From contig CM119371.1 in the NCBI GenBank assembly GCA_051294905.1, positions 9,240,001 through 9,304,000 of the forward strand: 64,000 nucleotides of DNA, written 5' to 3'. Both the position numbers and the translations under genes were made by a program. Positions 2,945 to 61,444 of the stretch are shown here, piece after piece. The notes beneath the pieces were generated by a model, which worked only from the letters and a program-made list of their open reading frames with translations, was not told where the DNA came from and made no database searches. How positions within the stretch are numbered: position 1 is the first letter of the stretch; each line of letters opens with the position of its first letter. The stretch comes from Botryllus schlosseri. Its lineage: Eukaryota.

Positions 2945-3683
2945 ATGGCACGTTACTATCTTGCTAACTGTCGAGTGGGAATAAGACACATCGATTCCAT
3001 TCTAAATCATCAGTCCATAACCAATGAAAGTGATACATATAGGTGACATTAGAAATGTTTTAATGCACTCTGGAATATTTCATGAGCAGTAATGTGAAGG
3101 AGTAAATGGACTAATAATGACGCTCAGAGATGCTAGCTCCTTTTACAAGCGTTTAAACCCCCTTAATGTCGGGGATCTGGCACCCACCTTGTCGTCTCGT
3201 CTCTTGCTTACACGGATATGTTGAAAAGGTCAAGTCGGGCAATAATTATTTTGGTGTGATAACATTCCAGTGCAAAATTGATTCAAGTTTTTTAATCCAA
3301 AACAGAAATGATTATTAACAAATAATTAGATTTTCGAACTTAACGCCCCATAAAACCTAAAGTGGCATCAATGAAATGAGATAAACAAGATTGCTGTAAC
3401 GTGATGTAATTCTAGAATTATTTGATTCCTATCAGTGAGTTACTATGTTGACCGTTGCCATATTCTTGCCAATTAGTTCATTAAATCTAGCACACTTCGG
3501 ACTTGTGATATCGATTAGAAATTGCCAATCATTTTTGTTGGCATTTATGAATTACCACAGCCTGCCACTAATATTGACTGGAATAGTTTTATAGTTTGAC
3601 TACCATTTTATAGGTAACCGATTTCGAATGTAGTTAATGGACATCTATGATACAGAACATAGCAGCGTTGATAACTCGAGATC

Positions 3684-6600: not shown

Positions 6601-9600
6601 GACGTCACCGTGATTGACTACTGCAACTTTATATTTTTACATAATCCTCAACAAAACACTCCATACAGCCAAATATTTGTATCAGTAGGCTATTGGCAAT
6701 TTAGCAACTAAAATGAGTATGCATAGTAGGATATTTCATCTCAGACGGTCATTCTGTTTATGTGAGTTCTACTAGTGATGAAGCGAAATTGCCTTGTGAT
6801 TTTCCTACTTAAAAAAGAGGTCATGAACTATTTGGTAAATTTAGAGGCTTTGCGGACCCCCTAAAAATGCTTCGCGGACCCCCGGTTGAGAACCGCTGAT
6901 TTAAAACGTCTTCGCGGCCCACCTGAAATAGCTTCGCGACCCATCAGTGGGTCGAATGAGAGTCACTGAATTTGGGTATTTCGATTTCCCTTTTTGGGAA
7001 AGATTATCGCAGCTAAATAACAAATCGTTGCTGACCGCACTAGATATAAGCCCGCAATTGATGTCATCTTTAACTGAGATTGCCGACTTGGCGAAATCAC
7101 AAACTAGCGCGTTGGTTGCGAAACGTTGTGTTGCGTCTGGAGTTACGAGAGTTGACGTGAGTACAAAGCGCCTTTGCGTGAGCTGGCCGAAAATTTTTGA
7201 AAATACCAATTTTGACACTAAGCAGTAATCGCATTCCAAAGGTCTCGTTACTGGTCGCGGAAATTCAAATCTACTACATTGTTTTGTAATGCCGCCTCAG
7301 ATCTATATCATGCAGGCCTCTATTAACTGATATATAACTTGGATGATACAACTCGCGAAATAAAAGGAAGATGTCGAGTCAACCATTAAATATATGCCAG
7401 CTATTTCTAGTGTAACTCGACGTCACTCTGCGATTACATTGGTTTCTCGAAAATCTTTATATAATTTTTAGATGACAAACTCGATGAAAGTAAAACTATT
7501 TTCTTTCAAACACCCTACAAAATAGCCTATGTATAGATCTACAGATTTTAATACAACCCTAATTCTGAGTATCTTTGAACAGCATTGTTTCTTGTTCTCG
7601 TAAAATGGTTCGGCCTAAGAAAATTGGGAATGGTGTCCACTTTCCTCTTCAGTCTTTCGCTATTTGCTGCGTCGCTGAGCACCAGTATTACCATGTACGT
7701 AGTGTTCTGTGGAGCAGTATCCGGTAAGTGCAAAAATTCTGTATAGAGTCAGAGTTAACATTGGTTGTCCGATGAACGTCAAACAGTTTGGGTGGTCTAT
7801 CATTTCCACATGGCATGAGATGATTGTTCGGTTTTGTATTATTATCTGTTCGATTTAAGAGGCATATTTTCGCAAACATACATTCGAATGCAATGTTTCC
7901 GTCTAATTCGTCACGAGTTTGCGCACACTCACCAACTCACTGCGCGGTCCCTTGGACAACAGCGCGCAACGACTAAAAAATAAGGTGTGCAGCTTAGATT
8001 TTCTGTGCGCAGCGACCTGGTCAGCACTGCGCAATTGCGCATGCACGCAGCTTAGAGGGGGCATTGCTCGAATGGTATTATCGGTAATATTATTATTTTA
8101 ATTAGGGGCGGTGCTTATTGCCATTTAGTGTATTGTATACTGTACGTTCCTGGGTAATTCAAACCAATCACACTGGATTATATATGATAATAATAATGAT
8201 TCGACATGATCCAAAAAATCACGTTGTTGGGCACTGTGCATATTCTTCATAAGGCCTTGAATGTACCACTGGACTAAAATTACACTTGTGAATCACAGCA
8301 TAATTACTGTAATTTCGATTCTTCATTTTCAATAATCTCCCCCTCTGCTCGGTAATCCTTGCCAATTCTTCATCTACTGCAATTCTGTAATGTGACTTCT
8401 CCATGTATTGCATAGGAATACCAATTTGACTGTTTTACTGAAATTTTCAAAATTTACTCTAATTTCGCCATTTTCCTTTGGGGGCAGGTTGCTCCCCAGA
8501 TTATGTGTGTATTTACCAGTTTTACTGTGAATAAAGAATATGATAAAATATAATACAGTAAAGCAATGATATGTATATATTCGAGTGAGACTGATTTGAA
8601 TCAATCCATAGATCAATCCTCAATAACGGATGAACTTCTATAATTTCTCGCTTAAATCTACTAATTCAACTCAATTACTTGAGGATTTTACATTGTTAAG
8701 ATAGACTTTCCGTTCTTCACCTCTATACTTTACCTACTTATGTGAGGATGCGACACTTGACCATGTGGTTTAAAGTTTACGTTTGGATTCGGATTGGATA
8801 TGTGTTAGTTTCTGGGTTATAAAATCACAGTGTGGCATGTTCCCTATTCCATCCAACCGCAATCTATCCTTGACCGCTTATCATTTTGCCTAGGGTTGCA
8901 TTCAAAACGAAAATCAATTTGAAACAAACATGTTTAAAGCAAAGCCCTTGTTTAAACATGTATTTTTATTGTTTTGTTTTTGGGTCATGACGTCACGAAT
9001 ATTCAGTTGTGACGTTATAATGGATTGACATTGACAATTGAAGATATAGGGTAAATATAGCTCCTTTGACGAAATATCGGTACTTTTATTGCTGTTGAAT
9101 TGACTATTTCTAGGGTTCCAAGTATCCCATATCGATATACGTCGGCTATATTGGGTGGTAATTGTCCGTAGGCTCATACAACGTGTTTTTTTGAAAGTAT
9201 TTACACATTTATGACATAAATTTACAACTTAAAAAAACAATTTAGTTTTTTGAAAAAGGCCCTTGTTTAAAACACTGTTTGAAACATGTTTTAAACAAAG
9301 TGTTTTAAAACACCGTTTGTTTTAAATGCAACACTAATTGTGCCGCATGCTCAAATGCCAGGGATGCACATTCTATCAGTGTTGGGATCAAGTCACTACC
9401 TTCGAGTCACGAGTCATTTCGAGTCATTGCACATTTTGACTCGAGTCAAGTCAAGTCAATCGATTTTTGGAAGTGACTCGAGTCAAGTCGAGTCAAGTCA
9501 AGTCAAGTCACGAGTCAAGTCATAATTCAAGTCAAGTTGACTTTTCGACGTATGAGGTATTAGTGGTCAGTGATTCTGGACCAATGAACGAATATAGAGT

Positions 9601-12600
9601 TAAATATAAACGCAAGATGGCGCTTTATCGCTCACATATACGTAGAAATGCTAAAATATACGTACGTAATTGCATGTCATCGGATTATAGTTACCAGCCA
9701 AAATAGAGAATAAAGAAACGAATTGATAAGATGCAATACATTACCCATTTACAAATTGATATGATACAATTCCAGCCTGCGCCAATGGTATAGGACTGTA
9801 TAAACTATGTTGGAATTCCATTTCAATACAACAAGGTTTGGTTAAGTTAAGAACAGAGAACAGAAATAGGCCTTTGCTGTTAAATTACTTTACTGGGTAC
9901 TAGTTTACGACAGCGTTAGTTGTAAGCTTCGATCACTTCGTTTGCGATCAATATATTTGTGAGAGAACAATGGAGGCACAACAAAACGCTCGATCACGAT
10001 CATTGAATGATTGGTCACGGGTTAGACTAGCCACTAGCGTTTCGCGTACAATCTGAACATATACAAGATAAAGTGAATTTTATCGACATCGATTGCTTGA
10101 TGACTCGAAATTGACTCGTGAATTTTTCTCCGAGTCACGAGTCAATCCACATTTCTGATACGCCGAGTCAAGTCAAGTCAAGTCATTTCAGCAAAGTGAC
10201 TCGAGTCAAGTCAAGTCATACGAAAAAGGTGACTCGAGTCATCCAACACTGCATTCTATACGTGCCAATTAGTGTTGTATGGCCTTTCTTCTTCATACAT
10301 GTACTTAAGTACAATCAGTAACTACTTTATGTTGATATCCGTGAAGTGTTGTATACTATGCCATTGTAAAAGTGTAAACATATTTACGGCGAACGACCGA
10401 TACGAATATAGTTGTAAGTCAGCAACAGAATCTATAACACAAGAGAGTGCTATGTGATTACTGATTTATATAGAAGGGCCGTCCCGATCGCTTATCACTG
10501 AACACAGTATGTAAATATTAAAGAAGTCCACAAGAGGCAGCAATGATTGGTAGTAATTATTAAAGTCATATACGAACAGAGTCAAAGGATACCGACATAG
10601 CTGTAAAAACGAAACACTTACCCTACCTCAAATCAACATGCAACTTATCGCTCGGCAGGATTTTTCTCCGGGATATCAATCAATGTGATCTACCTCACCA
10701 TATCGGTTTATTACGTGAAACATCGCTCGAAAGCAGCTGGATTGATCACAGCCGGAGTTTCAATTGGAGTCCTCGTGGCCGCTCCTGCTCTGTCATCGCT
10801 CATTAGCGAATATGGATGGCGCGGTGCGATGCTCATTACCTCAGCTATGACGCTGAATGCTTGCGTGGGAGTGGCATTGTATCGGTGAAGGAAATACATA
10901 GGTTATACCTAGAGCGATTTTTTTTTTACATTTTAGACAAAGTCAAAATTAGGTCAAAATTGTTACGTTAGATCAGTAGTTCCCAACGTGGGCGATTTGG
11001 CGGTCTAGGGGGGCGAATATGACGAAGGGGGCGACAGGGAGCGAAAATGGACAAAGGGGGCGACGGGGGGCGAAAATAGCGAAGGGGGCGATAGGGGGGC
11101 GATGACGCGTCAAAACGGCTGACCTTTTTTTTTTAGTCAACCCACGGAAATTTAGTTACAAAAGTGTGTCATATTAGACATCGAGCCGAAAATTTGACCT
11201 TTTTTTTTTAGTCAACCCGCCTGTGATTACAGTTTGTATGCCCAATTTTCGGTACACAAAATTTGGGGGGCGATTATCGGTGTTGACCTTGAAAAGGAAG
11301 CGATGGGTAAAAAAAGGTTGGGAACCACTGCGTTAGATCAAATAATGTCAAAATTGTTTACAAAGGTTAAACATTTATGCAACCTGCATTTCGTTTGTAT
11401 CGTAGATTTTGCACTGTCGGTCAACTTATCATTTGACATTTCACATCTTGTAGCCTACTTTATAGGCCTAGCGTTGTCGACGGCTCATTGTCTGCTCATT
11501 GTGAACCATAAACAAAAAACTGAAACAAATAGCTTGACATGGTGTTATGCTCAACGTACTGTAATATCCCAACTGAAGCAAGACTGCGTGGGCATTGCAT
11601 GGTTCTTATATCCAGAAGCGCAGGATGAAAAATTGTGATGTATTGTTGACACCGTTGCCAGAATGAAGCAACACGGTTTGTCACGAGCAGATGTACGCAC
11701 AACTTCAATGTTGTCAGTCAGCCAACAACTGCTGATGTTGAACGTACTTTCTCCATTCTTGGCAAACTACTTAGTAAGAATAGTCACTTTCTACCCGAGA
11801 ATGTATAGAAAAGTATCTTTCGTTGAACTATTGATTTTAAATATTTCTACCATAATACATATTGTAGCTACTGGAATTCTTCACCGGGCCAGATTTTGTT
11901 AAAATACAGTTTTTTCATGTCAGTTTTTGGGGCAAAAAAGTTTTATTTTCAGGCCAAATTACTTTGTAAGGACCTTTAGTTCCAACCATAAATGAAGATA
12001 AGTAGTACAATTCTAACATTATGTGGGAAAACTCCTAATTTGCATACGTTAGGTCAAATTTGGTCAATATTAAGTTTATTTTAGGTCAAAAAATGTCAAA
12101 ATTTTGATTTTTTTATGTCAAAATCTTCCGTTTTTTAGGTAAAAAAAAATCGCCCCAGTTATAACAGAAGAGTCAGCTACATATAGCTTCCAAGTAAGGT
12201 ATCGACCAGGAACAGGCAATTCGATTCGATCCTGAGTCGAGTAATGTATCGAGTATCATTTATTATAGTACCGCACTTAATACTAGTTCGCTACCAAATC
12301 GAGAACCAGGATGATTCGATCCCTAGTAGAGATTAAACTTCGAGTCAAGTCAATTTCGTATATATGTGAATATTATATATAAATAGATAGTTAGCAATAC
12401 CTTAATATATTGACGACTTGGTCACAGAGAATCGTCAGATCCATGCCGCCGTGTAACATCTGACTGGTCGAAATACCCGTCACACAACCAAAGTAAATAT
12501 AACTTTCTCTTTTTCAGACCAGTAACTGTAACAGAAGCGGCAGAAAACAATGTGACTGATGCCATGATCGTGACAAAGTCACGTACTTCAGATAAGACAC

Positions 12601-29006: not shown

Positions 29007-30310
29007 GTTGTAAGTAGTAAATGACGGTCAAACCCGGCGACCAGCTCATCACATACTAAACATACGGGTTTGCCTCAAATTTGAGTGAACAAATATATAG
29101 TGGCCCATATCTTCTTGAAAGTACGGCCTTCATCGCGCACTTTTTTTGTCATGCTTATTCATTATTCATGACCTTATGGATGACAATGACGGCTGATAAC
29201 GTACAAGCGCACTGTGCATGTGCACTGACTTCCTCGTTGAAAGAATTGGAGATCTGAAAACCTGAGGCGTAAACGAATAAAAGCACAGAGCGTGTTACAA
29301 TAACAACACACATGGTTTTAACTACACTGACGGAAACAGTGAGTTGTGACTTTAATTGTTACGGCATACTTTACTATATTGGTTTTTATTTTGAATGTTC
29401 TTTAAATCCGAACTACCCATACATAGGTCACTTACACACGGTACATAAGTGAATACGCTTCATAGAAACATACTTTTTGAACAGTTTGTACAGCCTATGG
29501 TTTTTCACTTTTACTCATTCAAAAGTATGCCTCGTGTTCTGAATTCCAAACAACATGTCGCAGACCGCAGTTTGGCCAGATTTGAGTTATATGATAGTTA
29601 TGCACATGACTACGACAAGAAATATTTATCACAGCAATTCACCTGTTTTTTCCAAGTGCTCCTTCGCTATTCCCATATCAGCTGTAACGAAATAGCGAGA
29701 CACATGATAAGCGATTTGAGAATAAAGAGAAAAGTATTTACAATGACAATGCTTCATAAAATATCCCATATAATTATTTGACTACACTATACAGTTTGTA
29801 GTATTTCGGGAATCAAATTGTATCAAACATTTCAGATCGCCGCAAGGAAAACAAGCACAGCAACATATCAATATCCGTGTTTCTCTATCTAATTCGGATT
29901 GCACCGTCATATACTATATCTAAGACTTGATTGCTGTGACCAGAGGTGGTCCAAGTTATCACGAAAGCTACTGAACAAGAAGTAGAAGTGACGTGGAATT
30001 CTACTCAAGTACGAGTAGAAGTAGCGTTTTCCGAAGCAGCCAAAAATGACGTCAAGTAGAAGTTGAGCTGGCTGTTAATACTACTCAAGTCAGTAAGTAG
30101 TTTTCAAAAGAATCAGACATAAATACCCTATGGTGGATCGTCAAAGTTTGGTAACTAACATATCGTCGCAGTGGAATCAAAGTAGCTTATGCTCGTTTGT
30201 CAAATTGATAGAAAATCAAGTTCTTGTAAACTTCTCATCTTTGATCGGCCATATCTTGACCGTGTTGATGTTTGTCACGCTGTTTGAAAGTTATCACCAT
30301 GGGCAAAATA

Positions 30311-30867
30311 CAGGGTTGTAACCAAGTCACAAGGCTCCGAGTCACAAGTCAATCTCACTTTTATAGTTTTGACTCGAGCCAAGTCGAGTCATTTCAATTC
30401 ACCACCGAGTCAAGTTCGAGTCCAAGTCAGCGAGCAGAGGGTCGAGTCCGAGTCATGGAATTATGACTCGAGTCCGAGTCCAAGTCATTCTATAGACTGC
30501 TCAGTTTCCAGTTAAAGTATTGGTAAACCCACTTTTTATAACTCTGTTCGGTGATATCGAATGTTTCGCATTTAAAATAGACCAATTTTCCTCACTTTTA
30601 GCAGTTTCTGGTCGCATATTCAAGTACCAGTACCGACAGACGAAATCCCAATAGTGTGTTGGCTTCGGAATTACAATGAAATGTCGGTCTTGGCTTTCTG
30701 AGTCTCGAGTCAATGACTTGGTTCGAGTCATGTGCAATGACTCGAGTCCAAGTCGAGTCAATACACAGATTGACTCGAGTCGAGTCGAGTCATTTCCGTA
30801 TTTTGAAAAAATGACTCGAGTCAAGTCGAGTCATCAGAAAATCGTGACTCGAGTCATTACAACCCTG
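30311..30867. mobile_element. GACTCGAGTC-rich MITE family, copy 1
   Basis: CAGGGTTGTAA / TTACAACCCTG ends; perfect TSD GCAAAATA. Confidence 0.88.
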
Positions 30868-39453: not shown

Positions 39454-39734
39454 TCATTTATGACCAATATCAATGTATCATTAATCTGACTTCTGGGGAA
39501 CACATTGTCGGGTCCAGCATCTACCGTTTAAGCGTACGCTTATCTTCCCTTGTTAGTCCTTGTCGTATTTGTTGATAATATGACGGAATATATCGATTTT
39601 ATGGAATTGTTATAGCATTTGATTGTTCCAGTTGATACATTTTGTAATGCTCAAGCCATCATTGCTGCAGCACTATGGCATAACGTGGGCCGAGCCGTCT
39701 TTGGGTATCTTGTACAATTTACATCGATATATTA

Positions 39735-40314
39735 CAGGGTTGTAACCAAGTCACATGGCTCCGAGTCACAAGTCAATCTCACTTTTATAGTTTTGACTCG
39801 AGTCAAGTCGAGTCATTTTCAATTCACCACCAAGTCAAGTCCGAGTCCAAGTTATCGAGCAGAGGGTCGAGTCCGAGTCATGGTATTGTGACTCGAGTCC
39901 GAGTCCGAGTCATTGTGTTGACTGCTCAGTTTCCAGTTAAAGTCTTGTTAAAGCCACTTTTTATAACTCTGTTTGGTGATATCGAATGGTTCGACTTTAA
40001 AATATGCTAATTTTCCTCACTTTTAACAGTTTCTGGTCGCATTTTTAAGTACCAGTACCAATAGACGAAATCCCGATAGCGTGATTACTTTACTATTCTT
40101 CGAAATTACAATGAAATGTTGGTCTTGGCTGTCTGAGTCTCGAGTCATAAGACTTGGTTCGAGTCATGCGCGATGACTCGAGTCCAAGTCAAGTCAATAC
40201 ACATTTTGACTCGAGTCGAGTCGAGTCATTTCCGTATTTTGAGAAAATGACTCGAGTCAAGTCGAGTCATCAGAAAATCGTGACTCGAGTTTGACTCGAG
40301 TCATTACAACCCTG
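39735..40314. mobile_element. GACTCGAGTC-rich MITE family, copy 2
   Basis: Same TIRs as 30311-30867; perfect TSD ATATATTA. Confidence 0.88.
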
Positions 40315-47913: not shown

Positions 47914-50469
47914 AATGTCATGACCGATCTCGGTATGGAACATCGTCAAAATCAATGGAGATCAATACCGGCTTTTGAGTAAAATCTGTTTGCTGTACAA
48001 TGTACATGATAGATCAGCACACACTGAACTTCGGAAACGAAATTACTACCCTTATCTTTAAGTAGCAAGCCTGAAACTTGGAGCAGTGCTAAATACGACC
48101 TTCACGACATATCATACCAAGTTTCAAGAATTATCATGGTGCGAAACACCGTCAAAATCGACATATACCAGCAAAGGTCGACTCAACGCATATCACGGTA
48201 ACCGAGTTCAGATATAAATACGATTGTTACATCACACCTTAGGGGCGACAGGCATAGTTGCCCCACTTGCTCGGCCATTTTACGAATAGGAGAGAGTAAA
48301 TCACCGTTTCTTTATTGTGCGCGGCTTTGAGAGAATAGATAGTGAAAGCTTGTTATGAGCGCTACCGGGGCAAGCCCCGGCTAGGCATTCACAAAGCGAA
48401 AACACAGAAGAGAATTCGATTTTCGCAGACTTCGCTATGTATGGGCATTTGTTACCGAAAGCACAAGAATAATGCGGGTTTCGCTGTGATCTCGGTATAT
48501 TCTGATTGCTGTGCGTCTATAAATGGTTAAATTGTTATTGAACAGAATTTTAGGTGGGGCAATGCCCCAGTTGCCCTATAGGACGAGCCGCCACTGGCAA
48601 GAGGGCTGATTCAGGTGAGCAAGTTTACGGCAACGTAAGCTAACCTCAGATCACTGCGTTAACGATCAATTCATTATTGATGTAACAATGGAGGCTCGGT
48701 AAAACTCGCAACCATTGAATGATCGGTTAACAATCCGAACTTATAAAAGATATGGCGATTTAGTCGACATCGATTACTTGTCGACTTGAAATTGACTCGT
48801 AAATTTTGCTTCGAGTCACGAGCCAACCCGCATTTTTGAAGCGTCGAGTAAAGTCAAGTCAAGTCATTGTTACAAAGTGACTCGAGTCAAGTCGTAATGG
48901 ACGAGCTAGCTGGACGCCAAAAAGCCAGGTCAAAGTGTTATGGCCATTTCCGGTGAACTGCGGACTAATCTATTTAATGATATAGGCTTACTATACGCCC
49001 CGAAATTGCGAGTGGTCACTGGTAATGGCGAGGGACTGCTCAGAGCCGCGCCAAGCGCGAAATTTTTTCCAGATTCACGAATGAATTTCGTCATTGATAT
49101 TAGTAGTTTTACATATTACTATCAAACATTGATCCTTTCTCAGCCAACGTGATCAGATTCACCGGTATAAAGTTTTCGAAAATTCAGGGCCAGTTATAAA
49201 TTATGATGCATCTTCGGGCGAGGTCATTATTTTATTGCATGCTGTTATTTCTTGACCTCCCGTCAGGATTGTCGGTATAGTGAGGAGCGTTCACGGTTCC
49301 GAGTTGGTATTTCTATACGAGGCACATCATTTTCCTCTGCTGCTGTTTGTATCTGTTGTGGGGCTCTGATTGCAAAGGCGCTATACTGTATTGAAATCGA
49401 AAATTGAAGTCACATTACCAAGATTAATTAAAAGCTTTCAAGAAATCGGGAGTTAATTCGTTAATTCAAATTGCATTTCGGCGGCCGCACAAATTTCCCT
49501 CTACGGCCGCAGTTTGGCCACCCCTGCACTAGGCATTATCGGCCAGGGTTGATGGGATGCATGGAATTGTTTTTTCACCACCAGTCACAAGACGAACAAC
49601 ATAATGAAATAACAGCGAAAGTCAATTTATTTAATGCAATGGCTGCATTTGTTTATTTTCCACTAGCTGGTCGATGCGTGGCATACGTTTTCTCACAACG
49701 CATCGAACGTCATGCAGCTTGGGCGCAACAACTGGGTTTTGTTTCTTCGAATTGACAGTCATCGGGGATGAAAATCCTTGCTAGCACTCTGACGTAGAAT
49801 GGAAAATTAGGAGATGGGGAATAGCGCGAGAAGCTAGCGTCGAGTACGATGATGCCATGCTAAGCCAGAAGTTTATTGGAGAACAATCTTTTCAAAATCA
49901 ACCCCACCTAAAAATAACTACCTTCGGTCGAAAAAAATAGAATCTACTCACGTACCACCTGGAAGACCTTCGCGTACCACAGGTTGGGAACCACTGTTCT
50001 ATACCAATAAAATATTATCGCCCTCGGCAGAAGCAGACCGTACCCATATGATACCTCTTGCGGATAGGTGTTTCGATAGCATAATGCGCTAGAGGGCGAT
50101 CTCTTTGTTACCATGGGAACTGACACTAGCGCAACTAAAGCTGATATTTGCGCTGCGTTCCGTTTGACACCCGAAATGATGCGGAGCTGATATCTGCACA
50201 CGAAATAGCGCCAGACATGCCCCAGACCTGATACCTGCGAACCATTTTTATGCGGACATGCTCCGGACCTGATATCTGCGCGCTGAACGGGCATCCCTAA
50301 AAGACGGAGAAGCGGAGGCAGCGGAGACAGCGGAGGCAGCGGAGAACGGACCCTAAAACGCGGAAGCAACGGAGACGGCGGAGAGAGCCAAAAATGCCGA
50401 TTCCTAAAAGACGGAGACAGCGGACCTAGCGGAGAGCGGAGATTTCGGTCATTAACCTTTATAGACACG

Positions 50470-51935
50470 CGCGACATAGCAGACGGATACTGAAAGCGGA
50501 GTCCGGGACCCCGCGAAACGGACATAGCGGACGGTTATATAATATAGAAAGCGGAGATCAGGGCGTATCGGAAGATGTTTCGAAGCAGTGGAGAATAACG
50601 GAGAAGTCAGCCATCCAAGTTCAAGGCCAATTGGGCGACTGATTGCCCATCGATGAGATGACATAGCGGGCGGTTATATAATACAAGGAGAGCGGAGTTC
50701 GGGGCGTATCGGAAGATGTTTCGAAGCAGTGGAGAATAACGGAGAAGTCAGCCATGCGAGTTCAAGGCCAATTGGCGACTAATTGCCCGTCGATGAGATG
50801 ACACAGCGGGCGTTTATATAATACATAGAAAGCGGAGTTCGGGGCGTATCGGAAGATGTTTCGAAGCAGTGGAGAATAACGGAGAAGTCAGCCATATGCA
50901 AGTTCAAGGCCAATTGGGCGACTGATTGCCCATCGATGAGATGACATAGCGGGCGGTTATATAATACAAGGAAAGCGGAGTTCGGGGCGTATCGGAAGAT
51001 GTTTCGAAGCAGTGGAGAATAACGGAGAAGTCAGCCATGCTATTTCAAGGCCAATTTGGCGACTGATTGCCCGTCGATGAGATGACATAGCGGAGGGATA
51101 CTGAAAGCGGAGTTCGGGCCCCCGCGAAATAGACATAGCGGACGGTTATATAATATAGAGAGCGGAGATCAGGGCGTATCGGAAGATGTTTCGAAGCAGT
51201 GGAGAATAACGGAGAAGTCAGCCATGCGAGTTCAAGGCCAATTGGCGACTGATTGCCCGTCGATGAGATGACACAGCGGGCGGTTATATAATACAAAGAA
51301 AGCGGAGTTCGGGGCGTATCGGAAGATGTTTCGAAGCAGTGGAGAATAACGGAGAAGTCAGCCATATGCAAGTTCAAGGCCAATTGGGCGACTGCTGATT
51401 GCCCGTCGATGAGATGACATAGCGGGCGGGTATATAGTACAAAAAAAGCGGAGTTCGGGGCGTATCGGAAGATGTTTCGAAGCAGTGGAGAATAACGGAG
51501 AAGTCAGCCATGCTATTTCAAGGCCAATTGGCGACTGATTGCCCGTCGATGAGATGACACAGCGGGCGTTTATATAATACATAGAAAGCGGAGTTCGGGG
51601 CGTATCGGAAGATGTTTCGAAGCAGTGGAGAATAACGGAGAAGTCAGCCATATGCAAGTTCAAGGCCAATTGGGCGACTGCTGATTGCCCGTCGATGAGA
51701 TGACATAGCGGGCGGGTATATAGTACAAAGAAAGCGGAGTTCGGGGCGTATCGGAAGATGTTTCGAAGCAGTGGAGAATAACGGAGAAGTCAGCCATGCT
51801 ATTTCAAGGCCAATTTGGCGACTGATTGTCCGTCGATGAGATGACATAGCGGACGGATACTGAAAGTAGAGTTCGGGACGTAGCGGAAGATGTTAAGAAA
51901 CAGCGGTGAAAAACGGAAAAGGCAACCATGCAATT
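50470..51935. repeat. Tandem array, left arm of foldback element (~140-146-bp unit, one 187-bp variant; 9 units plus 1 degenerate)
   Basis: GAAGATGTTTCGAAGCAGTGG recurs at about 50571, 50712, 50852, 50995, 51182, 51322, 51468, 51608 and 51754. Confidence 0.93.
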
Positions 51936-52313
51936 TGGTGTATTTCAAAGTATTCGATAATATATAACCGGCACATATTTTTTTCGATCTGAGAACTAAT
52001 AATTCACTCCAAAATTTTCTAAAAACCCGAAACTGTTCATCTACCGTTACTGTCACACAGGGTTGTAACCAAGTCACAAGGCTCCGAGTCACCAGTCAAT
52101 CTCAGTTTTGACTCGAGGTCTGATACGATCTGAGGTTGGATCGATCTCAAAGTGCGGCGTTGGAGCATTGAGCAAGCGCTTTCCGAGACAAGCCCTTTGA
52201 CTCGAGGCCTTACTCATTCACTTTTTTCGGTTTGGCCAATAATATTGAGTGCATGGAAATTGTGCTGTGAGCATGTTTGGTGCCTGAATTCACAATTTCA
52301 ATTGTAATATATA

Positions 52314-53155
52314 CAGAGGTGGTCAGTAACGAAGTAGCCTACTTCTACTTTTTCGAAGTGCTCAAGTAGTTTTCCTCTACTTCTAGTACTTACTCAAGGA
52401 GATCTGATTTTCACTACTTCTACGTAATATTTTGTGATCTACTTACTTTTCGCTATTTTCAGTTTGTCAAGTAGAAGTAGCCTAATCCTCCAATCAGGAA
52501 GATAGCCTGAGGAATTTCGGGGCTGTTTTCACGGAGTATCCACATCTAATTTTCATAAAAGTTGAGTAAAGCCCAGAATTTTCATCGCGTTTCGCGCGCA
52601 GTGGATGCGGCATAAATAAAGCTACACTCTATGGCATTTTTACGACGCACCATATTTTTATTAGCGTTTACTAATCGCGCAAGGTGTTTATACACCGTAT
52701 CCTATACAACTTCTCCGTATTGCGCTTTGACTAAACTGCGGGCCTTATAATATGAAGGAGGGTGCGATACCATGATCTTTTCTAAAACGTGCTGTTTCAG
52801 TATACAGAGGATTAGTATCGCATTTCCATATCAATACTAGCATTTTTATCCATTGATGCGGAAGAATGCTTATGCTGTCGAAAATTGGATAGTTCCTGGT
52901 ATGCATCAATATGAATCAAGCTCGACACCTTTCGCGTAGCTCAATTTCCACGTTTTGACAATCCATGCGAACGAATTACGATCGTTCTCACAACTACTTA
53001 CTTACTTGAGTAGATTTAAAGTCAGTCAATTCTACTGCTGCTTCAAGTAGTTTTAGGTTTCTTATGGAAAACGTACTTCTACTCGTACTTGAGTAAATTT
53101 TTTCGTCGCTACTTCTACACTTGAGTAGCTTTCTTGACTACTTTGATCACCTCGG
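52314..53155. mobile_element. MITE nested in the foldback spacer
   Basis: CAGAGGTGGTCA / TGATCACCTCGG ends; TSD AATATATA; CTACTT subterminal repeats. Related ends occur at ~29941 and ~60695. Confidence 0.8.
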
Positions 53156-54171
53156 AATATATAGCAATGTTACATAAGAAGTAAATCATGCTCTATCGCC
53201 GTATGGCTTCATCGTTGGCTGTGCAGGCTATTCCCAAATAGGTGGACATTTTTGACCATAAGAAAGTCTTCCAAAAGCGGTTAATTGCTCAACTCACTGT
53301 TTTATCATTTAGGTATAAAACGTAGCATCAGGATAGGTAGAAACGACTGTATGATGTATGTTACTGAAAAAACACACACAAATTGTTGTGTACAATATAT
53401 AGCGATCTTCAAATCCTAACAAGAACCGGATCCGCGGCGATGCGGGTAGACGATACGGCGCCTCAGCAGACAAATGCAATACACCATGCGGTGGATGACC
53501 TGGCGCTTTATGAATGTACGCAATGTTAGATCATCGCAATACCCCTGATTAAACCGTCCGGCCCCGCGTATATGGCTGGAATATCAGCAACGCGGTGCGG
53601 GTACCACTATACCCATTATCAGTAACCCATACCTATACCCATTAACATGTGCTTATGCCTGAAAACTTCAGGATTAAGTATGATGTTTCATTATTTGGAA
53701 ATATTTGCTCTGGCTATTACAGTATATGTCAAATAGTCCTTAAATTGTTATTGAGCTTGGGAGATAATATATATCTTTAGTCTTTACCGATTTGAAATGA
53801 ATTGTATAAGCGGCAAGCTATAGTTGAATAGTTTGAGCTAGGTTGATATTTCGTGTGTGTAGCGATTACAGATAGCAGTAATTGAAGGAAATACTGGGCA
53901 ACAAACATCACATCTAAACCCGCGGATCGCCAGATCACGAGTAATTAATAAAACCTCAGAGGTCTGCGAGCAGTCATCAGCTGTCAAATCTATTGAGTAA
54001 AGACTCGAAACTGCAGAATGATCTTCTAGCCAGTGCCGGTCCCAAGCTCGCGAAATTAGGCAGGGTGAAACTTGAAACGCCACGAGTTGAGCTATCGTCC
54101 GCAATCACAGCTAATCGTCGAATATGACAGCCCTTTCATATACTCGAGAGGACAAGCACAACTATCAACAA

Positions 54172-56315
54172 CGTCTGCTATGTCATCTCATCGATGGGCA
54201 ATCAGTCACCTTGAACTCGCATGGCTGACTTCTCCGCTATTCTCCACTGCTTCGAAACATCTTCCGATACGCCCTGATCTCCGCTTTCTATATTATATAA
54301 CCGTCCGCTATGTCTCTTTCGCGGGGCCCCGAACTCCGCTTTCAGTATCCGTCCGCTATGTCATCTCATCGAAGGGCAATCAGTCGCCTTGAACTCGCAT
54401 GGCTGACTTCTCCGCTATTCTCCACTGCTTCGAAACATCTTCCGATACGCCCTGATCTCCGCTTTCTATATTATATAACCGTCCGCTATGTCTATTTCGC
54501 GGGGCCCCGAACTCCGCTTTCAGTATCCGTCCGCTATGTCATCTCATCGAAGGGCAATCAGTCGCCTTGAACTCGCATGGCTGACTTCTCCGCTATTCTC
54601 CACTGCTTCGAAACATCTTCCGATACGCCCTGATCTCCGCTTTCTATATTATATAACCGTCCGCTATGTCTATTTCGCGGGGCCCCGAACTCCGCTTTCA
54701 GTATCCGTCCGCTATGTCATCTCATCGACGGGCAATCAGTCGCCAAATTGGCCTTGAACTCGCATGGCTGACTTCTCCGTTATTTTCCACTGCTTCAAAA
54801 CATCTTCCGATACGCCCCGATCTCCGCTTTCCTTGTATTATATAACCGCACGCTATGTCATCTCATCGATGGGCAATCAGTCGCCAAATTGGCCTGAAAC
54901 TCGCATGGCTGAATTCTCCGTTATTCTCTGCTGTTTCGAAATATATTTCGCTACGCCCCGAACTCCGCTTTCAGTATATTATAACGATATAACCGTCCGC
55001 TATGTCATCTCATCGATGGGCAATCAGTCACCAAATTGGCCCGAAACTCGCATGGCTGACTTCTCCGTTATTCTCTGCTGTTTCGAAATATATTTCGCTA
55101 CGCCCCAAACTCCGCTTTCAGTATATTATAACGATATAGCCGTCCGCTGTGTCATCTCATCGATGGGCAATCAGTCGCCCAATTGGCCTTAAACTTGCAT
55201 GGCTGACTTCCCCGTTATTCTCCACTGCTTCGAAACATCTTCCGATACGCCCTGATCTCCGCTTTCTGTATTATATAACCGTCCGCTATATCTATTTCGC
55301 GGCGCCCCGAACTCCGCTTTCAGTATCTGTCCGCTATGTCATCTCATCGAAGGGCAATCAGTCGCCAATTGGCCTTGAACTCGCATGGCTGACTTCTCCG
55401 TTATTCTCCACTGCTTCGAAACATCTTCCGATACGCCCCGAACTCCGCTTTCCTTGTATAACCGCCCGCTATGTCATCTCATCGATGGGCAATCAGTCGC
55501 CCAATTGGCCTTGAACTTGCATGGCTGACTTCTCCGTTATTCTCCACTGCTTCGAAACATCTTCCGATACGCCCCGAACTCCGCTTTCCTTGTATTATAT
55601 AACCGCCCGCTATGTCATCTCATCGATGGGCAATCATGCAGTCGCCCAATTGGCCTTGAACTTGCATGGCTGACTTCTCCGTTATTCTCCACTGCTTCGA
55701 AACATCTTCCGATACGCCCTGATCTCCGCTTTCTATATTATATAACCTTCCGCTATGTCTATTTCGCGGGGCCCCGAACTCCGCTGTCAGTATCCGTCCG
55801 CTATGTCATCTCATCGAAGGGCAATCAGTCGCCTTGAACTCGCATGGCTGACTTCTCTGCTATTCTCCACTGCTTCGAAACATCTTCCGATACGCCCTGA
55901 TCTCCGCTTTCTATATTATATAACCGTCCGCTATGTCTATTTCGCGGGGCCCCGAACTCCGCTTTCAGTATCCGTCCGCTATGTCATCTCATCGACGGGC
56001 AATCAGTCGCCAAATTGGCCTTGGAATAGCATGGCTGACTTCTCCGTTATTCTCCACTGCTTCGAAACATCTTCCGTTACGCCCCGAACTCCGCTTTCTT
56101 TGTACTATATAACCGCCCGCTATGTCATCTCATCGACGGGCAATCAGTCGCCCAATTGGCCTTGAACTTGCATGGCTGACTTCTCCGTTATTCTCCACTG
56201 CTTCGAAACATCTTCCGATACGACCCGATCTCCGCTTTCTATATTATATAACCGTCCGCTATGTCCATTTCGCGGGGTCCCGGACTCCGCTTTCAGTATC
56301 CGTCCGCTATGTCGC
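54172..56315. repeat. Tandem array, right arm of foldback element (~13 units of ~136-188 bp, inverted relative to left arm)
   Basis: CCACTGCTTCGAAACATCTTC (reverse complement of the left-arm motif) recurs. The first three units have a 178-bp period, and two variant units lie at ~54900-55150. Confidence 0.93.
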
Positions 56316-57580
56316 GCGTGTCTATAAAGGTTAATGACCGAAAGCTCCGCTGTCTCCGTCTTTTAGGAATCGGCATTTTTGGCTCTCTCCGCCGTCTCCG
56401 TTGCTTCCGCGTTTTAGGGTCCGTTCTCCGCTGCCTCCGCTGTCTCCGCTGCCTCCGCTTCTCCGTCTTTTAGGGATGCCCGCGCTGAACGGACCCAGAT
56501 TTAACGAAATATATTGGTATAACGCCATTTTAATAATATTCACTAAGGAGTTGGTAAACCTTACTTAATTCCCTGAAGTGAAAACCCGATAAGACCTTTG
56601 TGAGTCGTATATTTTGTCGTGTGAACGTAGATAATAAAACATGAAATCATACGATGTTTTGGATATATACTCTCTCGTGGCTATGAGAGATATGCGGATG
56701 TAATACCACGTAGAGATATTCATTCGTTCATTATTCGCTGACTCGGAAGTCCATTGCATTGCCGTACGTGAGTCAATAAAGTTACAAGTCGTGGAGACAG
56801 AAACAAAATATTTGCGTCAGTGTGATCCATCGAATACGTGTGCAATAGACTGGTCGTGGTACGTCAGCCCACAAGGCCGTACGGCACGGTTTCGCCGGTC
56901 CGTCAAGAGAAGAAACACGCAGCGAATTGTAAACGCAACCTTCTGGAGTCAGATAAAACACAACTATAACATCTACAAACATTCGCTCTGCGTTATACCA
57001 GACATGCTTTAGACGTGATATCTACGCCCTAGACACACTGAAAACAACGTGTGACTTTTAGATGACCTCTATGTCTCCTGTTTTTGTGATATCTGCGATA
57101 TCTCAGTATCTTCACAGTGATATCTGCGATATCTCAATATATCCACAGTAGTGATATGTGTGATGTCTGCGATATATGGGAATATTCGTGGGGCCCTATC
57201 GAATATAAACATTTGTTTACATTCGATATTACCACGATACGATACGATACACGCTGTGTGTGATGGAGCGTATTTCAATTTTAGTGAACCGAGTCGAATT
57301 AGAGGGAAAGGTGTAGCTGTAGATATTTAAATGGGTAGCTGTGTAAATATTATTTGGAATATCAACCAACAGTCTTCCTAGATTTTGTTCGTTGCTGATT
57401 TTTGGTCATATAGCCAACCGGATCTCGCCTCCTTTTACCTTTTAGCCTTCTAGCAACTGTACGTACTACGCAGTAAAGTGGTGTACACATTGTAACTGTA
57501 ATGACTCCTATTCGATCCAGGAAGACACAATTGATGCAGACATTCCTATTGAATAATACATTCATTCACAGATCAAGATC

Positions 57581-60500
57581 ATGAAGACATCTCAGTCTTT
57601 ACATGTATTGCCTGACAGTGCTTGGTCTTGGGTGATTTGCTTCGGCAATGTACTGGCCTCGTTCAGTTCCTTGGGAATATATCGCTGCCTTGGAGTATTT
57701 TACCCTGCAGTCATGTCTGAATTCAATGTGAACTACGCGGAAGTGTCTCTGGTGTCAGGATTGTTCACAGGGAGCATGTCTTTCGGCTGTAAGCATCCTT
57801 TTTATTCGATTCTAGTAGCTGTCAGGAATGTTTTAGCGTTCAAAATTTTATTTCGAACAGCCTTGTTTCTTGTTCTTGTGAAATGGGTGGGCCTCAGAAA
57901 AATTGGAATGGGGACCAATTTGCTTTTGAGTATTTCCGTATTCGTTGCGTCGCAAAGCACCAGCATTACAATGTTTGTGGTGACTTGTGGAGCATTGTGT
58001 GGTAAGTGACTTACCGTAAGTCGGCTATGCATGGGTGAAATTATGAAAATGCAAATTTAAGTCATATTCAAATAACATTACCGACCCGCATTGTCCCATC
58101 GCAATTATTTAATAACGGAAATTCAGTGTATCACAGCGATTCAATAAAACTAACTTGAGTATGGAGCTCTTGCAATCACCCCAACCCTAAAATCAAATCG
58201 CAGATCTGCGTGACTTCCTACCCATGTGTTGAAGGGTTTCCTGGCTACCCATCAACGTACAATCCGTCCTAGTAGCCTAGTAGCTTGCTACCGTAACAGT
58301 CTTGGGCAAGTTTATTACATGATTGTGATCATCCTTGACATGTCCCATTTCATTATTCATATTAGCGAAGAGAAATTGTTCTCAACCCTAAACCAAGTCA
58401 GTAACCCCGTACAGATTCATGAATATGACCCCAACCAATAATTTAAGGATATCACACACAAAACAACGTGTGCATCGAGCATCAGACGCTTGCTAAAATT
58501 TAAATTCATATTTCCTATGTGTATGTCTTTGCGACGCCATGTCAACAAATGTTGTTTATGTGTGATGCCATTGTTAGACAATACTGTTACTTTGTTATAC
58601 TTCAACTTTGTGATACGATTGGTGATATAGGCTTACAATGTTCTTTCCAATTCTCTAGCTTACTAGCTTCTGACGATTACCGCTGACGAGTGTCAGCCAA
58701 AATTATTACAGTTCATTTCAATATTCAATTGTATATTGAAGTTCTGTACCTCCAAGAACCACTTCAGCTGTAGAAAAATAGGAAGAAGTTGGTGATTACT
58801 GATTAGGTTGCATCAGTTTTATTGGGGAAAGTGTCATAAGAAGCTCGTCAAATAGCTCGTTAATCACGGTATGTTCTTGTACATTGTACCTATTTGTAGT
58901 GTCATTAGTCACTTTGCGTTGGCCGCTGAGATACATCTCGCAATTTCGAAAGTGTTCACTTCAGATTAACAGCTAAAACTATGCGGTCGTTCGACCAAAT
59001 CAACTTTTGAAGCTAATAGTTACTTCAGAAATTTTAACACACTTCCACTTGTGTAGTGTCTTGGAAATTCTCACTTTTGCACAACTTGACTGGAACTTGA
59101 ACTTGAACGTCTTAGCTTTACTGTTTCCTCTACTCTTGAGTAGGCTAGCAGCCCTGACCATATAGCCCATCTGATCCACCACTGGTCTGTGCCAAGCGCA
59201 CTCATTGTAAGCTCATAGGACTTGTTAAATAGGGCTGTTCAAAAGTAACTTTTCTCGACTGTTACTGGCTACCAATGTTACCTATAATTTTTCACGAGTC
59301 TGAGCGCTCTCACCATGTCACTGCGCATTCCCTTGGACAACAGTGCGTGACGACTAAAAAAATAGTTATCACTTCGGCTTTTTTTTGTGCGCAGCATATT
59401 TTCTGTCCGTGGAGGCCGTGTCAGAACTGCGCAATTGCGCACACGCGCAGCTTATAGGGAACATTGCTGGCTACCACATGAAATTGTTAGGTTGTCTGAA
59501 AAAAATGATGCACAGCAAATTCGGCTGAATTCCATCCAGTAGAAGAGAAGTTATTAGGGATGAAAATTTCGGATTTGGAAAATATAGCAGCCTATTTACG
59601 GTTGCAAATTCTTTCATTATTTATTACAGATCTAACCACCATAAATGCTATGATTTGAAATCCTAAATTTGAACAGCAGTAACTTCGCTTGTGGGTTGGA
59701 ATCTATTGTGGATCGTTTTTGAAACAATTTAACAATTTCATGGTGGAGCCAGTAAAATTTGATTTGATTTTTTTTAATGAATAGCTTGAGTCCAAAATTT
59801 TCCACTGTGATAACTTCACTTCCACTGGTTGGAATTGAGCCTAAATTAGTTTTCAGCAGGGTTGTAATAACTCGAGTCGCGATTATTTGGTGACTCATCT
59901 TGACTCGAGTCATTTTTTTATGCGTAAGTGACTCGACTCGAGTCTATTTGTGTATTGATTCGTCTTGTACTCGAGTCATCGCGCATGACTCGAACCAAGT
60001 CACACGACTTGAGACTAGGACGACCAAGACAGACATTTCCTAGTAACTTCGAAGAATAGTAATGTTATCACATATGATTGGTATTTCGTCTATTGGTACT
60101 TGTACTTGGAAAACAGGTCCAGAAACTGTTGGGATTCAGGAAAATTACGATATTCTGAATGCAAGCCATTCTATAGGCTATCACTCGAGCAGAGTTAAAA
60201 ATTAGTCGACTTGTCTCGAGTCAAAATTATAAAAATGAGATTGACTTGTGAGTCGGAACCTTGAGACTAGGTTACAACCCTGATGTGCAGGGTTTTTATA
60301 GGTAACGTAACAATGTTATCAAGTTGCAAGTAAAATTTGAAAAAAAGAATCCGGCTAGTCTTTACATCTTACGGTGATGAAAAGCTCAGATACTTCCATC
60401 TTGCAGGATTTTGCGGCGGATTATCAGTCAGCTTGATCTTCCTGAGCATATCGATTTACTACAACAAACATCGCTCGAAAGCGGCTGGATTGACGACTGC

Positions 60501-60632
60501 CGGACTGTCCGTTGGCGGTCTCGTAGCGGCGCCTACTTTATCTGCGCTCGTTGGAGAATATGGATGGCGCGGCGCGATGCTCATTACGTCAGCGGTGACG
60601 CTTCACGCTTGCGTGGGAGCCGCACTGTACAG
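57581..60632 (+). CDS. Second SLC16/MCT-like paralogue, exons 1-3 (3' part not found in window)
   Basis: Exons 57581-57788, 57861-58001 and 60407-60632 have the same lengths (208/141/226 nt) and phases as exons 1-3 of the first gene. Motifs PDSAWSW, YYNKHRSKAAG, EYGWRGAMLI. An acceptor-like ttcacAG just before the ATG suggests an upstream 5'UTR exon. Confidence 0.9.
59273..59466. mobile_element. Short MITE
   Basis: CAATGTT / AACATTG ends; perfect TSD CTGGCTAC. Confidence 0.8.
59857..60282. mobile_element. GACTCGAGTC-rich MITE family, older inverted copy
   Basis: CAGGGTTGTAA / TTACAACCCTG ends; the TSD is degraded. Confidence 0.78.
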
Positions 60633-60870
60633 GTGAATGGAACCAAATTGATTGTAAAATAGGATAGGGTTCGACATGGCTTTCGAGTGATACACAGAGG
60701 TGATCAAAGCATTCAGCGTAGTTAATAAAGTGGAAGTAGAAGTAAAGCAGTATAGTCGCACTCCATCACAAGCAGGATTGTAACGTAACCAAGTCACAAG
60801 GTTCCGAGTCACAAGCCAATCTCACTTTTGTAGTTTTGACTCGAGTCAAGTTCAAGTCGGCGCTCAGCGG

Positions 60871-61444
60871 CAGGGTTGTAACCAAGTCACAAAGCTGCAA
60901 GTCACATGGCATTCTCACATTTTTGGTTTTGACTCGAGTCAAGTCGAGTCATCATAATTCACCACCGAGTCCAAGTCATCGAGCAGAGGGTCGAGTCCGG
61001 GTCACGGTATTATGACTCAAGTCCGAGTCCAAGTCATTGTGTTGACTGCTTAGTTTCCAGGTACAGTCTTGTTAAACCCACTCTTACAACTCTGGTGATA
61101 TCGAATGATTCGCATTTATGAATATACCGATTTTCCTCACTTTTAACAGTTTCTGGTCGCATTTTCAAGTACCAGTACCAATAGACGTAATCCCAATAGG
61201 GTGGTTACTTATATAACTGTTCTTCGAAATTACCATGAAATGTCGGTCTTGGCCGTCTGAATCTCGATTCATATGACTTGGTTCGAGTCATGCGCAACGA
61301 CTCGAGTCCAAGTCGCGTCAAGACACAGATTGACTCGAGTCGCGTCATTTCCGTACCGCTATTTTGAGAAAATGACTCGAGTGAAGTCGAGTCATAAAAA
61401 AATTGTGACTCGAGTCTGACTTGAGTCAAGTCATTACAACCCTG
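60871..61444. mobile_element. GACTCGAGTC-rich MITE inserted into an older copy of its own family (~60773-61640)
   Basis: Perfect TSD CTCAGCGG. The flanks on both sides continue a homologous, more diverged copy. Confidence 0.85.

Follow-up and report, generated by a model that had tools for sequence, protein, structure and literature searches.

Two blocks of satellite-like DNA about 2.2 kb apart in the genome of Botryllus schlosseri raise the question whether they are tandem arrays in their own right or the arms of a single transposable element. Both lie in a 64,000-bp stretch (contig CM119371.1 of assembly GCA_051294905.1, positions 9,240,001 to 9,304,000), which is called the window in the following. 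An initial annotation made from the letters of the window had proposed a foldback transposon. According to our analysis, window 50289-56481 very probably belongs to a Foldback-type family of the Mutator (MULE) superfamily, of which it is a non-autonomous copy with an internal deletion.

Ends of the element and its copies in the genome

The 9-mer GCGCTGAAC was found without mismatch at both flanks, and the terminal 21-mer GGGCATCCCTAAAAGACGGAG has just two exact sites in the window, at 50289 on the plus strand and at 56461-56481 on the minus strand, compared to none in 100 shuffled sequences. Since the positions of GCGCTGAAC and of the terminal 21-mers fix both ends, the element comprises 50289-56481 (6193 bp). 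Outside the two copies of GCGCTGAAC the left and right flanks are unrelated. The two blocks thus form one inverted-arm element with a perfect 9-bp target-site duplication (TSD), as had been proposed, and the claim that its ends are exact reverse complements is true for the outermost 21 nt.

The same termini occur at many other places in the 495.5-Mb genome. Allowing for at most one mismatch, the terminal 21-mer was present 170 times (93 forward and 77 reverse; control 0), which corresponds to about 85 family elements. With the terminal 182 bp, 40 scored genome places showed 95-100% identity; two places other than the window copy were 100% identical and 37 more 95-99%. Plus/minus pairing was possible for 76 of the first 100 exact termini, giving 38 pairs that span 1035-15117 bp with a median of 4722 bp. 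The initial annotation had expected different 9-bp TSDs at other copies, and the flanks of 16 copy pairs, including the window copy, were inspected in this respect. A perfect 9-bp TSD was present in 13 of the 16 pairs, each with a different sequence. In two further pairs (C16 and C2) the duplication was offset by one base, as expected if the position of the G-rich terminus is ambiguous by one base or if the duplication is 8 bp long. The perfect TSD of the window copy and the 100% identity of its terminal 182 bp to two other copies agree with the assumed recent insertion.

In 13 copies analyzed, the number of units per arm varied from 1 to 37 and was nearly always unequal between the two arms. 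The central domain ranges from none to about 8 kb across the family; copies of 1.0, 1.4, and 4.1 kb are nearly spacerless, with spacers of 7-26 bp (other non-autonomous copies, up to 3 kb). A sister copy at C1:7302679-7310796 has its spacer in common with the window element (2136 bp at 97.8% identity), yet contains 21 and 12 units compared to 9 and 13 in the window copy, indicating that array length changes faster than spacer sequence. Two paired copies of exactly 3083 bp are located 234 kb apart (C10:26344300-26347382 and C10:26578641-26581723) and may stem from a segmental duplication that carried one copy along, instead of from two insertions.

A 41-mer of the unit had 659 matches in the genome, and all 100 matches listed were situated inside elements bounded by family termini. 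The longest array among the copies seen, with 37 units and 5.8 kb, is likewise an arm of one element. The suggestion that the element can seed satellite DNA was not borne out, as no free array occurred among these 100 of the 659 unit matches.

Transposase gene and alternative explanations

A search for a family copy with a MULE transposase open reading frame (ORF), as proposed in the initial annotation, was successful. The first ORF found encodes 762 aa and lies in a 10.8-kb family copy. With this ORF as query, tblastn revealed three genome places that match it at 99% identity within an open frame of 1018 aa, corresponding to a single-exon transposase gene of 1013 aa when counted from the first ATG. 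The three intact copies of this gene, at C2:23708375-23711416, C13 near 4960136, and C14:4485648-4488689, are carried by elements of 11.3 to 15.1 kb between family termini (Table 1). In the autonomous C14 copy, the interior comprises 8.2 kb with one long ORF and no other frame of more than 137 aa; no inverted repeat surrounds the gene there, and a single 24-nt palindrome was detected. The possibility that the MULE gene is a nested independent element was dismissed, because the ORF of the C14 copy is not enclosed by an inner inverted repeat. Loci with ORF fragments of at least 85% identity were located within or near family termini in 12 of 14 cases, while those at C3:8916461 and C16:19505388 could not be matched to any terminus. 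Family copies that encode a MULE-like transposase and the 9-bp TSDs of the family support the placement of this Foldback element in the Mutator/MULE group.

The spacer of the window copy could be aligned with the interior of the C14 copy from the arm boundary over about 1.74-1.8 kb, and the alignment ends 2.8 kb short of the ORF. The following approximately 6.5 kb of the C14 interior, including the ORF, are missing from the window copy. As it lacks the transposase ORF, the window copy must be moved in trans, which is in line with its earlier description as a trans-mobilised element.

In the 1013-aa protein, Pfam recognized a Peptidase_C48 (Ulp1) domain and, with lower scores, MULE, SWIM, and PHD domains (Table 1); a FLYWCH domain had no Pfam match up to E 0.1. 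In an alignment of 30 sequences, D264, D329, E444, C586, C594, and H596 were invariant and C588 nearly so. The first three are the DDE residues, and C586/C588/C594/H596 make up a CxC...CxH finger that follows the catalytic domain. The motifs YDTTF, TDRE, and SESxN are conserved among the aligned relatives, as are the C48 catalytic residues His, Asp, Gln, and Cys (HW, DS, Q..DCG); the protease part was present in 11 of 16 aligned relatives. The conservation of both the MULE motifs and the C48 residues indicates that the MULE-Ulp1 fusion is old and widespread in animals.

A scan of 1.84 billion representatives yielded 2287 relatives with E ≤ 1e-3, 178 of them with E ≤ 1e-30. The best relative was an uncharacterized protein of Ciona intestinalis with 44% identity, and further ones, all named 'uncharacterized', came from Ptychodera flava, Ascaphus truei, Leptotrombidium deliense, Tetranychus urticae, and Paramormyrops kingsleyae. 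A single-sequence word search gave two matches, in C. intestinalis and Mytilus coruscus, and a profile search gave 25, none informatively named, 17 of which contain PF10551. The names of 20 representatives were 'uncharacterized' or empty, except for a JGI label 'Ulp1 protease family... /MULE transposase domain'. The 120.7-kDa NOF protein was absent from these 20 name-checked matches and from the 25 profile matches. In the ESM Atlas, the best cluster for the whole protein is automatically named '120.7 kDa protein in NOF-FB transposable element' (0.95; 213 of 256 features). With residues 1-700, the ten best named clusters were all MULE/SWIM, the NOF-named cluster was absent among the rows listed, and a FLYWCH-bearing cluster ranked 25th (0.85). 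A metagenome scan for the flanks of relatives returned one contig of 1.2 kb, which is too short to display arms. Within the Botryllus genome, other MULE-Ulp1 genes with 43-78% identity to the transposase were found at C1:7136034-7138475 (1069-aa frame), C4:16797003-16798844 (632 aa), and C8:4687166-4691982, and the more distant matches, which extend from 43 to 81% identity, show that the genome holds several related MULE-Ulp1 families.

Several observations weigh against the assignment to a mobile Foldback-type MULE family. The Pfam score of the MULE domain is below the gathering threshold, and the same holds true for SWIM and PHD. For 24 of the first 100 exact termini, the same list contains no partner; some of the partners have a mismatch and appear further down. 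In one of the 16 pairs inspected, the 13.2-kb pair C11:21968919-21982076, the flanks are unrelated; this pair includes three separate non-array stretches, one with a broken transposase gene, and probably represents two elements or a rearrangement between copies. The motif CGGAG is a candidate transposase-binding site by virtue of its density. Finally, contigs from four runs (three samples) over 49800-57000 are short, repeat-dominated pieces with no bearing on polymorphism or absence of the element, and neither an element-bridging joint nor an empty site nor an excision was seen among the joints listed for this region.

That no contig of the four runs spans the element would also be expected if the inverted duplication at this locus were false, produced by a chimeric long read folded back on itself or by the collapse of a satellite, and long-read assembly is known to fail on inverted satellite-like arrays. 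Such an artefact is extremely improbable, however, in view of the 170 occurrences of the same termini in the genome, the perfect locus-specific 9-bp TSDs of 13 of 16 pairs, each with a chance of about 4e-6, and the presence of the spacer with 97.8% identity at another locus. We attach practically no weight either to the view that a satellite underwent an inverted segmental duplication long ago, is immobile, and is flanked by identical 9-mers by coincidence: apart from the satellite-like look of the arrays nothing speaks for it, whereas the family-wide termini and TSDs, and terminal 182 bp that are 100% identical at two other loci and 95-99% identical at 37 more, speak against it.

Another alternative concerns the role of the gene: the arms could constitute a Foldback-like element of a different superfamily, comparable to Galileo in the P superfamily, with the MULE-Ulp1 gene as a passenger and not as the mobiliser. 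According to the available text of two reports, foldback architecture arose in different superfamilies (PMC3169594; PMC4079207). The best Atlas cluster, moreover, is automatically named after the NOF protein. In Drosophila FB-NOF, NOF has reportedly been argued to be an independent passenger, and a 2013 paper by Badal et al. is said, by its title alone, to call FB-NOF non-autonomous. On the other hand, the 9-bp TSD fits a MULE and not the P superfamily, in which the TSD is 7 bp. In the C14 copy, the ORF region is bordered neither by inner terminal repeats nor by a duplication, and the interior offers no other long ORF. In addition, the association of 12 of 14 ORF-fragment loci with family termini and the 99% identity of the three intact gene copies, which is matched by that of the arms, argue for a gene that belongs to the family. 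We therefore consider a passenger gene very unlikely and regard the family as Foldback-type MULEs with a transposase gene of their own.

Arms, spacer, and neighboring genes

The features of the window element, of the autonomous copies, and of their protein are compiled in Table 1. The initial annotation had described outer domains composed of GCGGAG-based 9-mers, and Tandem Repeats Finder (TRF) accordingly reported periods of 9 and 18 there. A 16-bp indel accounts for the different lengths of the two outer domains (184 bp left, 168 bp right). When the arm units were delimited at the unit-start sequence GACATAGCGG, 9 and 13 full units were obtained, close to the earlier estimates of about 10 and 13, and the optional module turned out to be 48 bp long instead of about 46 bp. 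This module is a short variant of the first part of the unit and has the same start. Within the arrays, TRF periods of 141-147 and 178 were accompanied by higher-order periods of 283-286 and 467-470, and the latter indicate block-wise unequal exchange.

In the outer domains and the arrays, CGGAG had densities of 54 and 15 per kb, respectively, compared to 0.4 per kb in the spacer and 0.3 per kb in window 1-50000. The motif has a single orientation within each arm: it occurs 10 times in the left outer domain, and the right inner array contains 31 CTCCG and no CGGAG. Stop-free frames of 92-196 aa on one strand within the arrays (window 49944-50534, 51045-51789, and 54069-56165) were rejected as genes; they recur from unit to unit, no start context is associated with them, and most likely they are an effect of the repeats.

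The arms are 98% complementary across the outermost 145 nt and 96% across the following 342 nt. Farther inward than about 485 bp, the unit variants follow one another in a different order in the two arms, and pairing is possible only out of register. Co-folding of the first 485 and 470 nt as single-stranded DNA gave -618.8 kcal/mol, compared to a mean of -125.5 for ten shuffles. The kilobase hairpin that had been postulated is thus reduced to a collinear stem of only about 485 bp, which is very stable as single-stranded DNA and might also form in vivo.

The spacer had been described as a region of about 2.2 kb with nested MITEs (miniature inverted-repeat transposable elements) and without a long ORF. 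It measures 2252 bp, no stop-to-stop ORF of at least 90 aa lies wholly within 51932-54183 according to the ORF list, and two high-copy MITE families are represented. A 35-mer at 52058 had 6332 genome matches and a 24-mer at the end at 52314 had 5394, with no match for either control. The 842-bp MITE is bordered on both sides by the 8-bp duplication AATATATA (52306-52313 and 53156-53163). In all four runs, the word depth of 51969-53173 exceeded that of the bins in 53174-54137 by a factor of about 50 to several hundred, and loose ends of contigs accumulated at 52058 and 53153. The first approximately 775 bp of the spacer are common to several other family copies, and window 52386-54163, which begins inside the 842-bp MITE, showed 93.5% identity to the part of the C14 copy's interior that adjoins the left arm of that copy. 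Because the sister copy and the C14 copy share spacer sequence with the window copy, the MITEs of the spacer were inserted in an ancestral copy and have since been carried along, not gained at this locus. Elsewhere in the window, the MITE family of the fragment at 52058 has four other copies, with members at 30298-30857, 39722-40293, and 60765-61418.

Table 1. Features of the window element, the autonomous copies of its family, and the 1013-aa transposase. Positions without prefix refer to the window.
Feature	Location	Strand	Size or score	Basis
Left TSD, GCGCTGAAC	50280..50288	.		same 9-mer at 56482-56490
Left outer terminal domain, begins GGGCATCCCTAAAAGACGGAG, rich in (A/G)CGGAG 9-mers	50289..50472	+	184 bp	repeats, terminal match
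Left inner array	50473..51931	+	9 full units of 138-146 bp	segmentation; TRF periods 141/146, higher-order 283/286/470
Left-array modules	50473, 51084; partial at 51843; degenerate unit end	+	48 bp	segmentation
Central spacer, non-coding remnant of family interior	51932..54183	.	2252 bp	outside unit/terminal BLAST matches
Fragment of high-copy MITE family, end CAGGGTTGTAACCAAGTCACAAGG...	52058..52313	+		35-mer genome matches
Nested MITE, ends CAGAGGTGGTCA... and ...GATCACCTCGG	52314..53155	+	842 bp	sequence reading, 24-mer matches
Right inner array	54185..56313	-	13 full units of 130-147 bp and 7 modules of 48 bp	segmentation; TRF 141-147, 178, 467
Right outer terminal domain, 16-bp indel compared to left one	56314..56481	-	168 bp	inverted-repeat comparison, segmentation
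Right TSD, GCGCTGAAC	56482..56490	.		sequence reading and flank comparison
First coding exon of downstream transporter gene	57581..57790	+		ORF list; paralogous exon 3676-3905
Autonomous copy	C2:23703840-23718956		15.1 kb	between family termini, duplication offset by one base
Autonomous copy	C13:4956198-4970241		14.0 kb	between family termini, duplication TACACTAAC
Autonomous copy	C14:4479336-4490598		11.3 kb	between family termini, duplication ATAGCAGGA
MULE	residues 260-356		E 5.3e-5	Pfam, 24.0 bits, under 27.6-bit cut-off
SWIM	residues 583-604		E 0.017	Pfam, below cut-off
Peptidase_C48 (Ulp1), PF02902	residues 754-878		E 5.7e-16	Pfam, 59.4 bits vs. 20.7 cut-off
PHD	residues 963-1001		E 6e-4	Pfam, below cut-off

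With respect to the surroundings, the start of the first coding exon at 57581 confirmed the earlier statement that the element is located about 1.1 kb upstream of the ATG of the downstream gene, a putative second SLC16 gene in that annotation. For this first exon (57581-57790) no relative and no Pfam match were found; the second exon (60334-60636) matches MFS_1 with E 1.9e-8. Exon-sized direct repeats with 78-79% identity (3676-3905, 7574-7730, and 10655-10894 vs. 57573-57802, 57852-58008, and 60403-60642) show that two tandem paralogous transporter genes are present, with the element between them. The insertion site is within a short degenerate repeat with TGATATCTGC-like motifs (window 50100-50288), and a 31-bp tandem detected by TRF at 57086-57149 carries a similar TGATATCTGC-like motif. 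Contigs of other individuals omit 52 bases at 50205-50258, which suggests a length polymorphism beside the element.

In summary, two apparent satellite blocks become one annotated mobile element, and the likely source of transposase for its family is identified. To our knowledge, most described Foldback families have no clear autonomous partner. Its roughly 85 young copies, together with three transposase genes that are intact and nearly identical, make the family a good candidate for an active element. The family also provides a natural data set on the expansion of arm arrays, as exemplified by sister copies with 97.8%-identical spacers and 9 vs. 21 units in the same arm, and on the contribution of Ulp1. 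Drosophila Foldback elements cause inversions, deletions, and unstable alleles, and the question is raised whether insertions of this type, in the present case 1.1 kb upstream of a transporter gene, have an influence on neighboring genes or genome stability.

Proposed mechanism and comparison with known systems

MULE transposases bind repeated sub-terminal sites. In the Botryllus family, the transposase made by the intact copies would most likely bind the CGGAG motifs, which are present in one orientation in the outer domains and in every unit, pair both ends, cut at the GGGCATCCC termini, and insert the element with a 9-bp stagger. By analogy to other MULEs, copies without the gene would be mobilised in trans. 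The arrays could lengthen and shorten through unequal exchange or slippage, giving rise to unequal arms, and deleted or short copies may result from interrupted gap repair or from recombination between the arms. The Ulp1 domain might perhaps act on SUMO-dependent silencing or repair; a role of Ulp1-type domains in transposition or repair was suggested in the available text of an earlier study (PMC2836005).

The Botryllus family shows the features that define the Foldback class, i.e., terminal inverted repeats composed of tandem sub-repeats that vary between copies and arms, a variable or absent center, and dispersed copies flanked by TSDs. It recalls Drosophila FB and FB-NOF in having long modular inverted arms of tandem sub-repeats with a copy number that is variable and unequal between arms, a central domain that varies or is missing, 9-bp duplications, and a large ORF in a minority of copies. 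The Botryllus sub-repeats of 130-147 bp and the 48-bp module differ, however, from the 10/20/31-bp series of FB sub-repeats, and the coding region, as seen in the C14 copy, has no inverted repeats of its own, whereas the NOF coding module possesses them inside the FB arms. A possible homology to the NOF protein is suggested by the automatically named Atlas feature cluster (0.95).

Regarding the MULE superfamily, the TSD of 9 bp agrees with the size of about 9 bp (8-11) given in the available portions of two reports (PMC3169594, PMC6446971), and conserved residues form the SWIM-type CxCxnCxH finger after the catalytic domain. Foldback-type elements with a MULE transposase and 9-bp TSDs are represented by Tm1 of the root-knot nematodes (Meloidogyne). 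In the accessible description of Tm1, the transposase is Phantom-like, with a FLYWCH finger and without Ulp1 (PMC3169594), whereas the Botryllus protein has Ulp1 and PHD and, up to E 0.1, no FLYWCH match. The latter protein thus lacks, at this threshold, the combination of N-terminal FLYWCH and MULE that defines the Phantom subclass in this source. Tm1 is also described there as decaying, in contrast to the three intact, 99%-identical genes of the Botryllus family.

Tetris of Drosophila virilis, according to the part of its description at hand (PMC4079207), is similarly a Foldback-type element, with arms of approximately 220-bp tandem repeats and TSDs of 8-10 bp, and was assigned to Mutator. 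The same text mentions no known autonomous copy and reports expansion of the repeat into kilobase satellite arrays outside the element; the Botryllus family, in contrast, has autonomous copies, and no free arrays were present among the unit matches listed. Galileo, a P-superfamily element of Drosophila, shares long, internally repetitive inverted arms that are highly variable between copies (PMC3573991, PMC3688188, as far as available), but has a P-type THAP transposase, while the Botryllus family combines 9-bp TSDs with a MULE-type transposase.

Mutator transposases with an Ulp1 domain, like the C48 domain of the Botryllus protein (PF02902, E 5.7e-16), were reported from plants (KAONASHI and related MULEs) and, as MuDR-type elements in Repbase Reports, from hydra and lancelet, and a figure legend (Figure 1e) refers to an alignment of Ulp1 and PHD of Mutator transposases; in the available text of this source, foldback arms are absent from their descriptions (PMC2836005). 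In the accessible part of a MULE survey, one Ciona savignyi sequence is almost all that is reported for chordates (PMC6446971). In the literature text searched, no mention of the terminal 14-mer motif and nothing relevant on a foldback transposable element in Ciona were found.

Since Foldback-type MULEs, Ulp1-bearing animal Mutator transposases, and satellite-seeding Foldback arrays have all been described, the element is of a kind already known. What may be new is this particular family and the intact union of Foldback arms with an Ulp1-PHD MULE gene. A bolder proposal, which we regard as possible though doubtful, is that the family is an undescribed and still active Foldback family whose whole autonomous element is intact in three copies and carries a NOF-like MULE-SWIM-Ulp1-PHD gene without terminal repeats of its own. 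If this were true, NOF-type proteins would be true Foldback transposases, and the Botryllus family would be a tractable system to study both how a transposase handles kilobase repetitive ends and which role a SUMO protease plays in this process.

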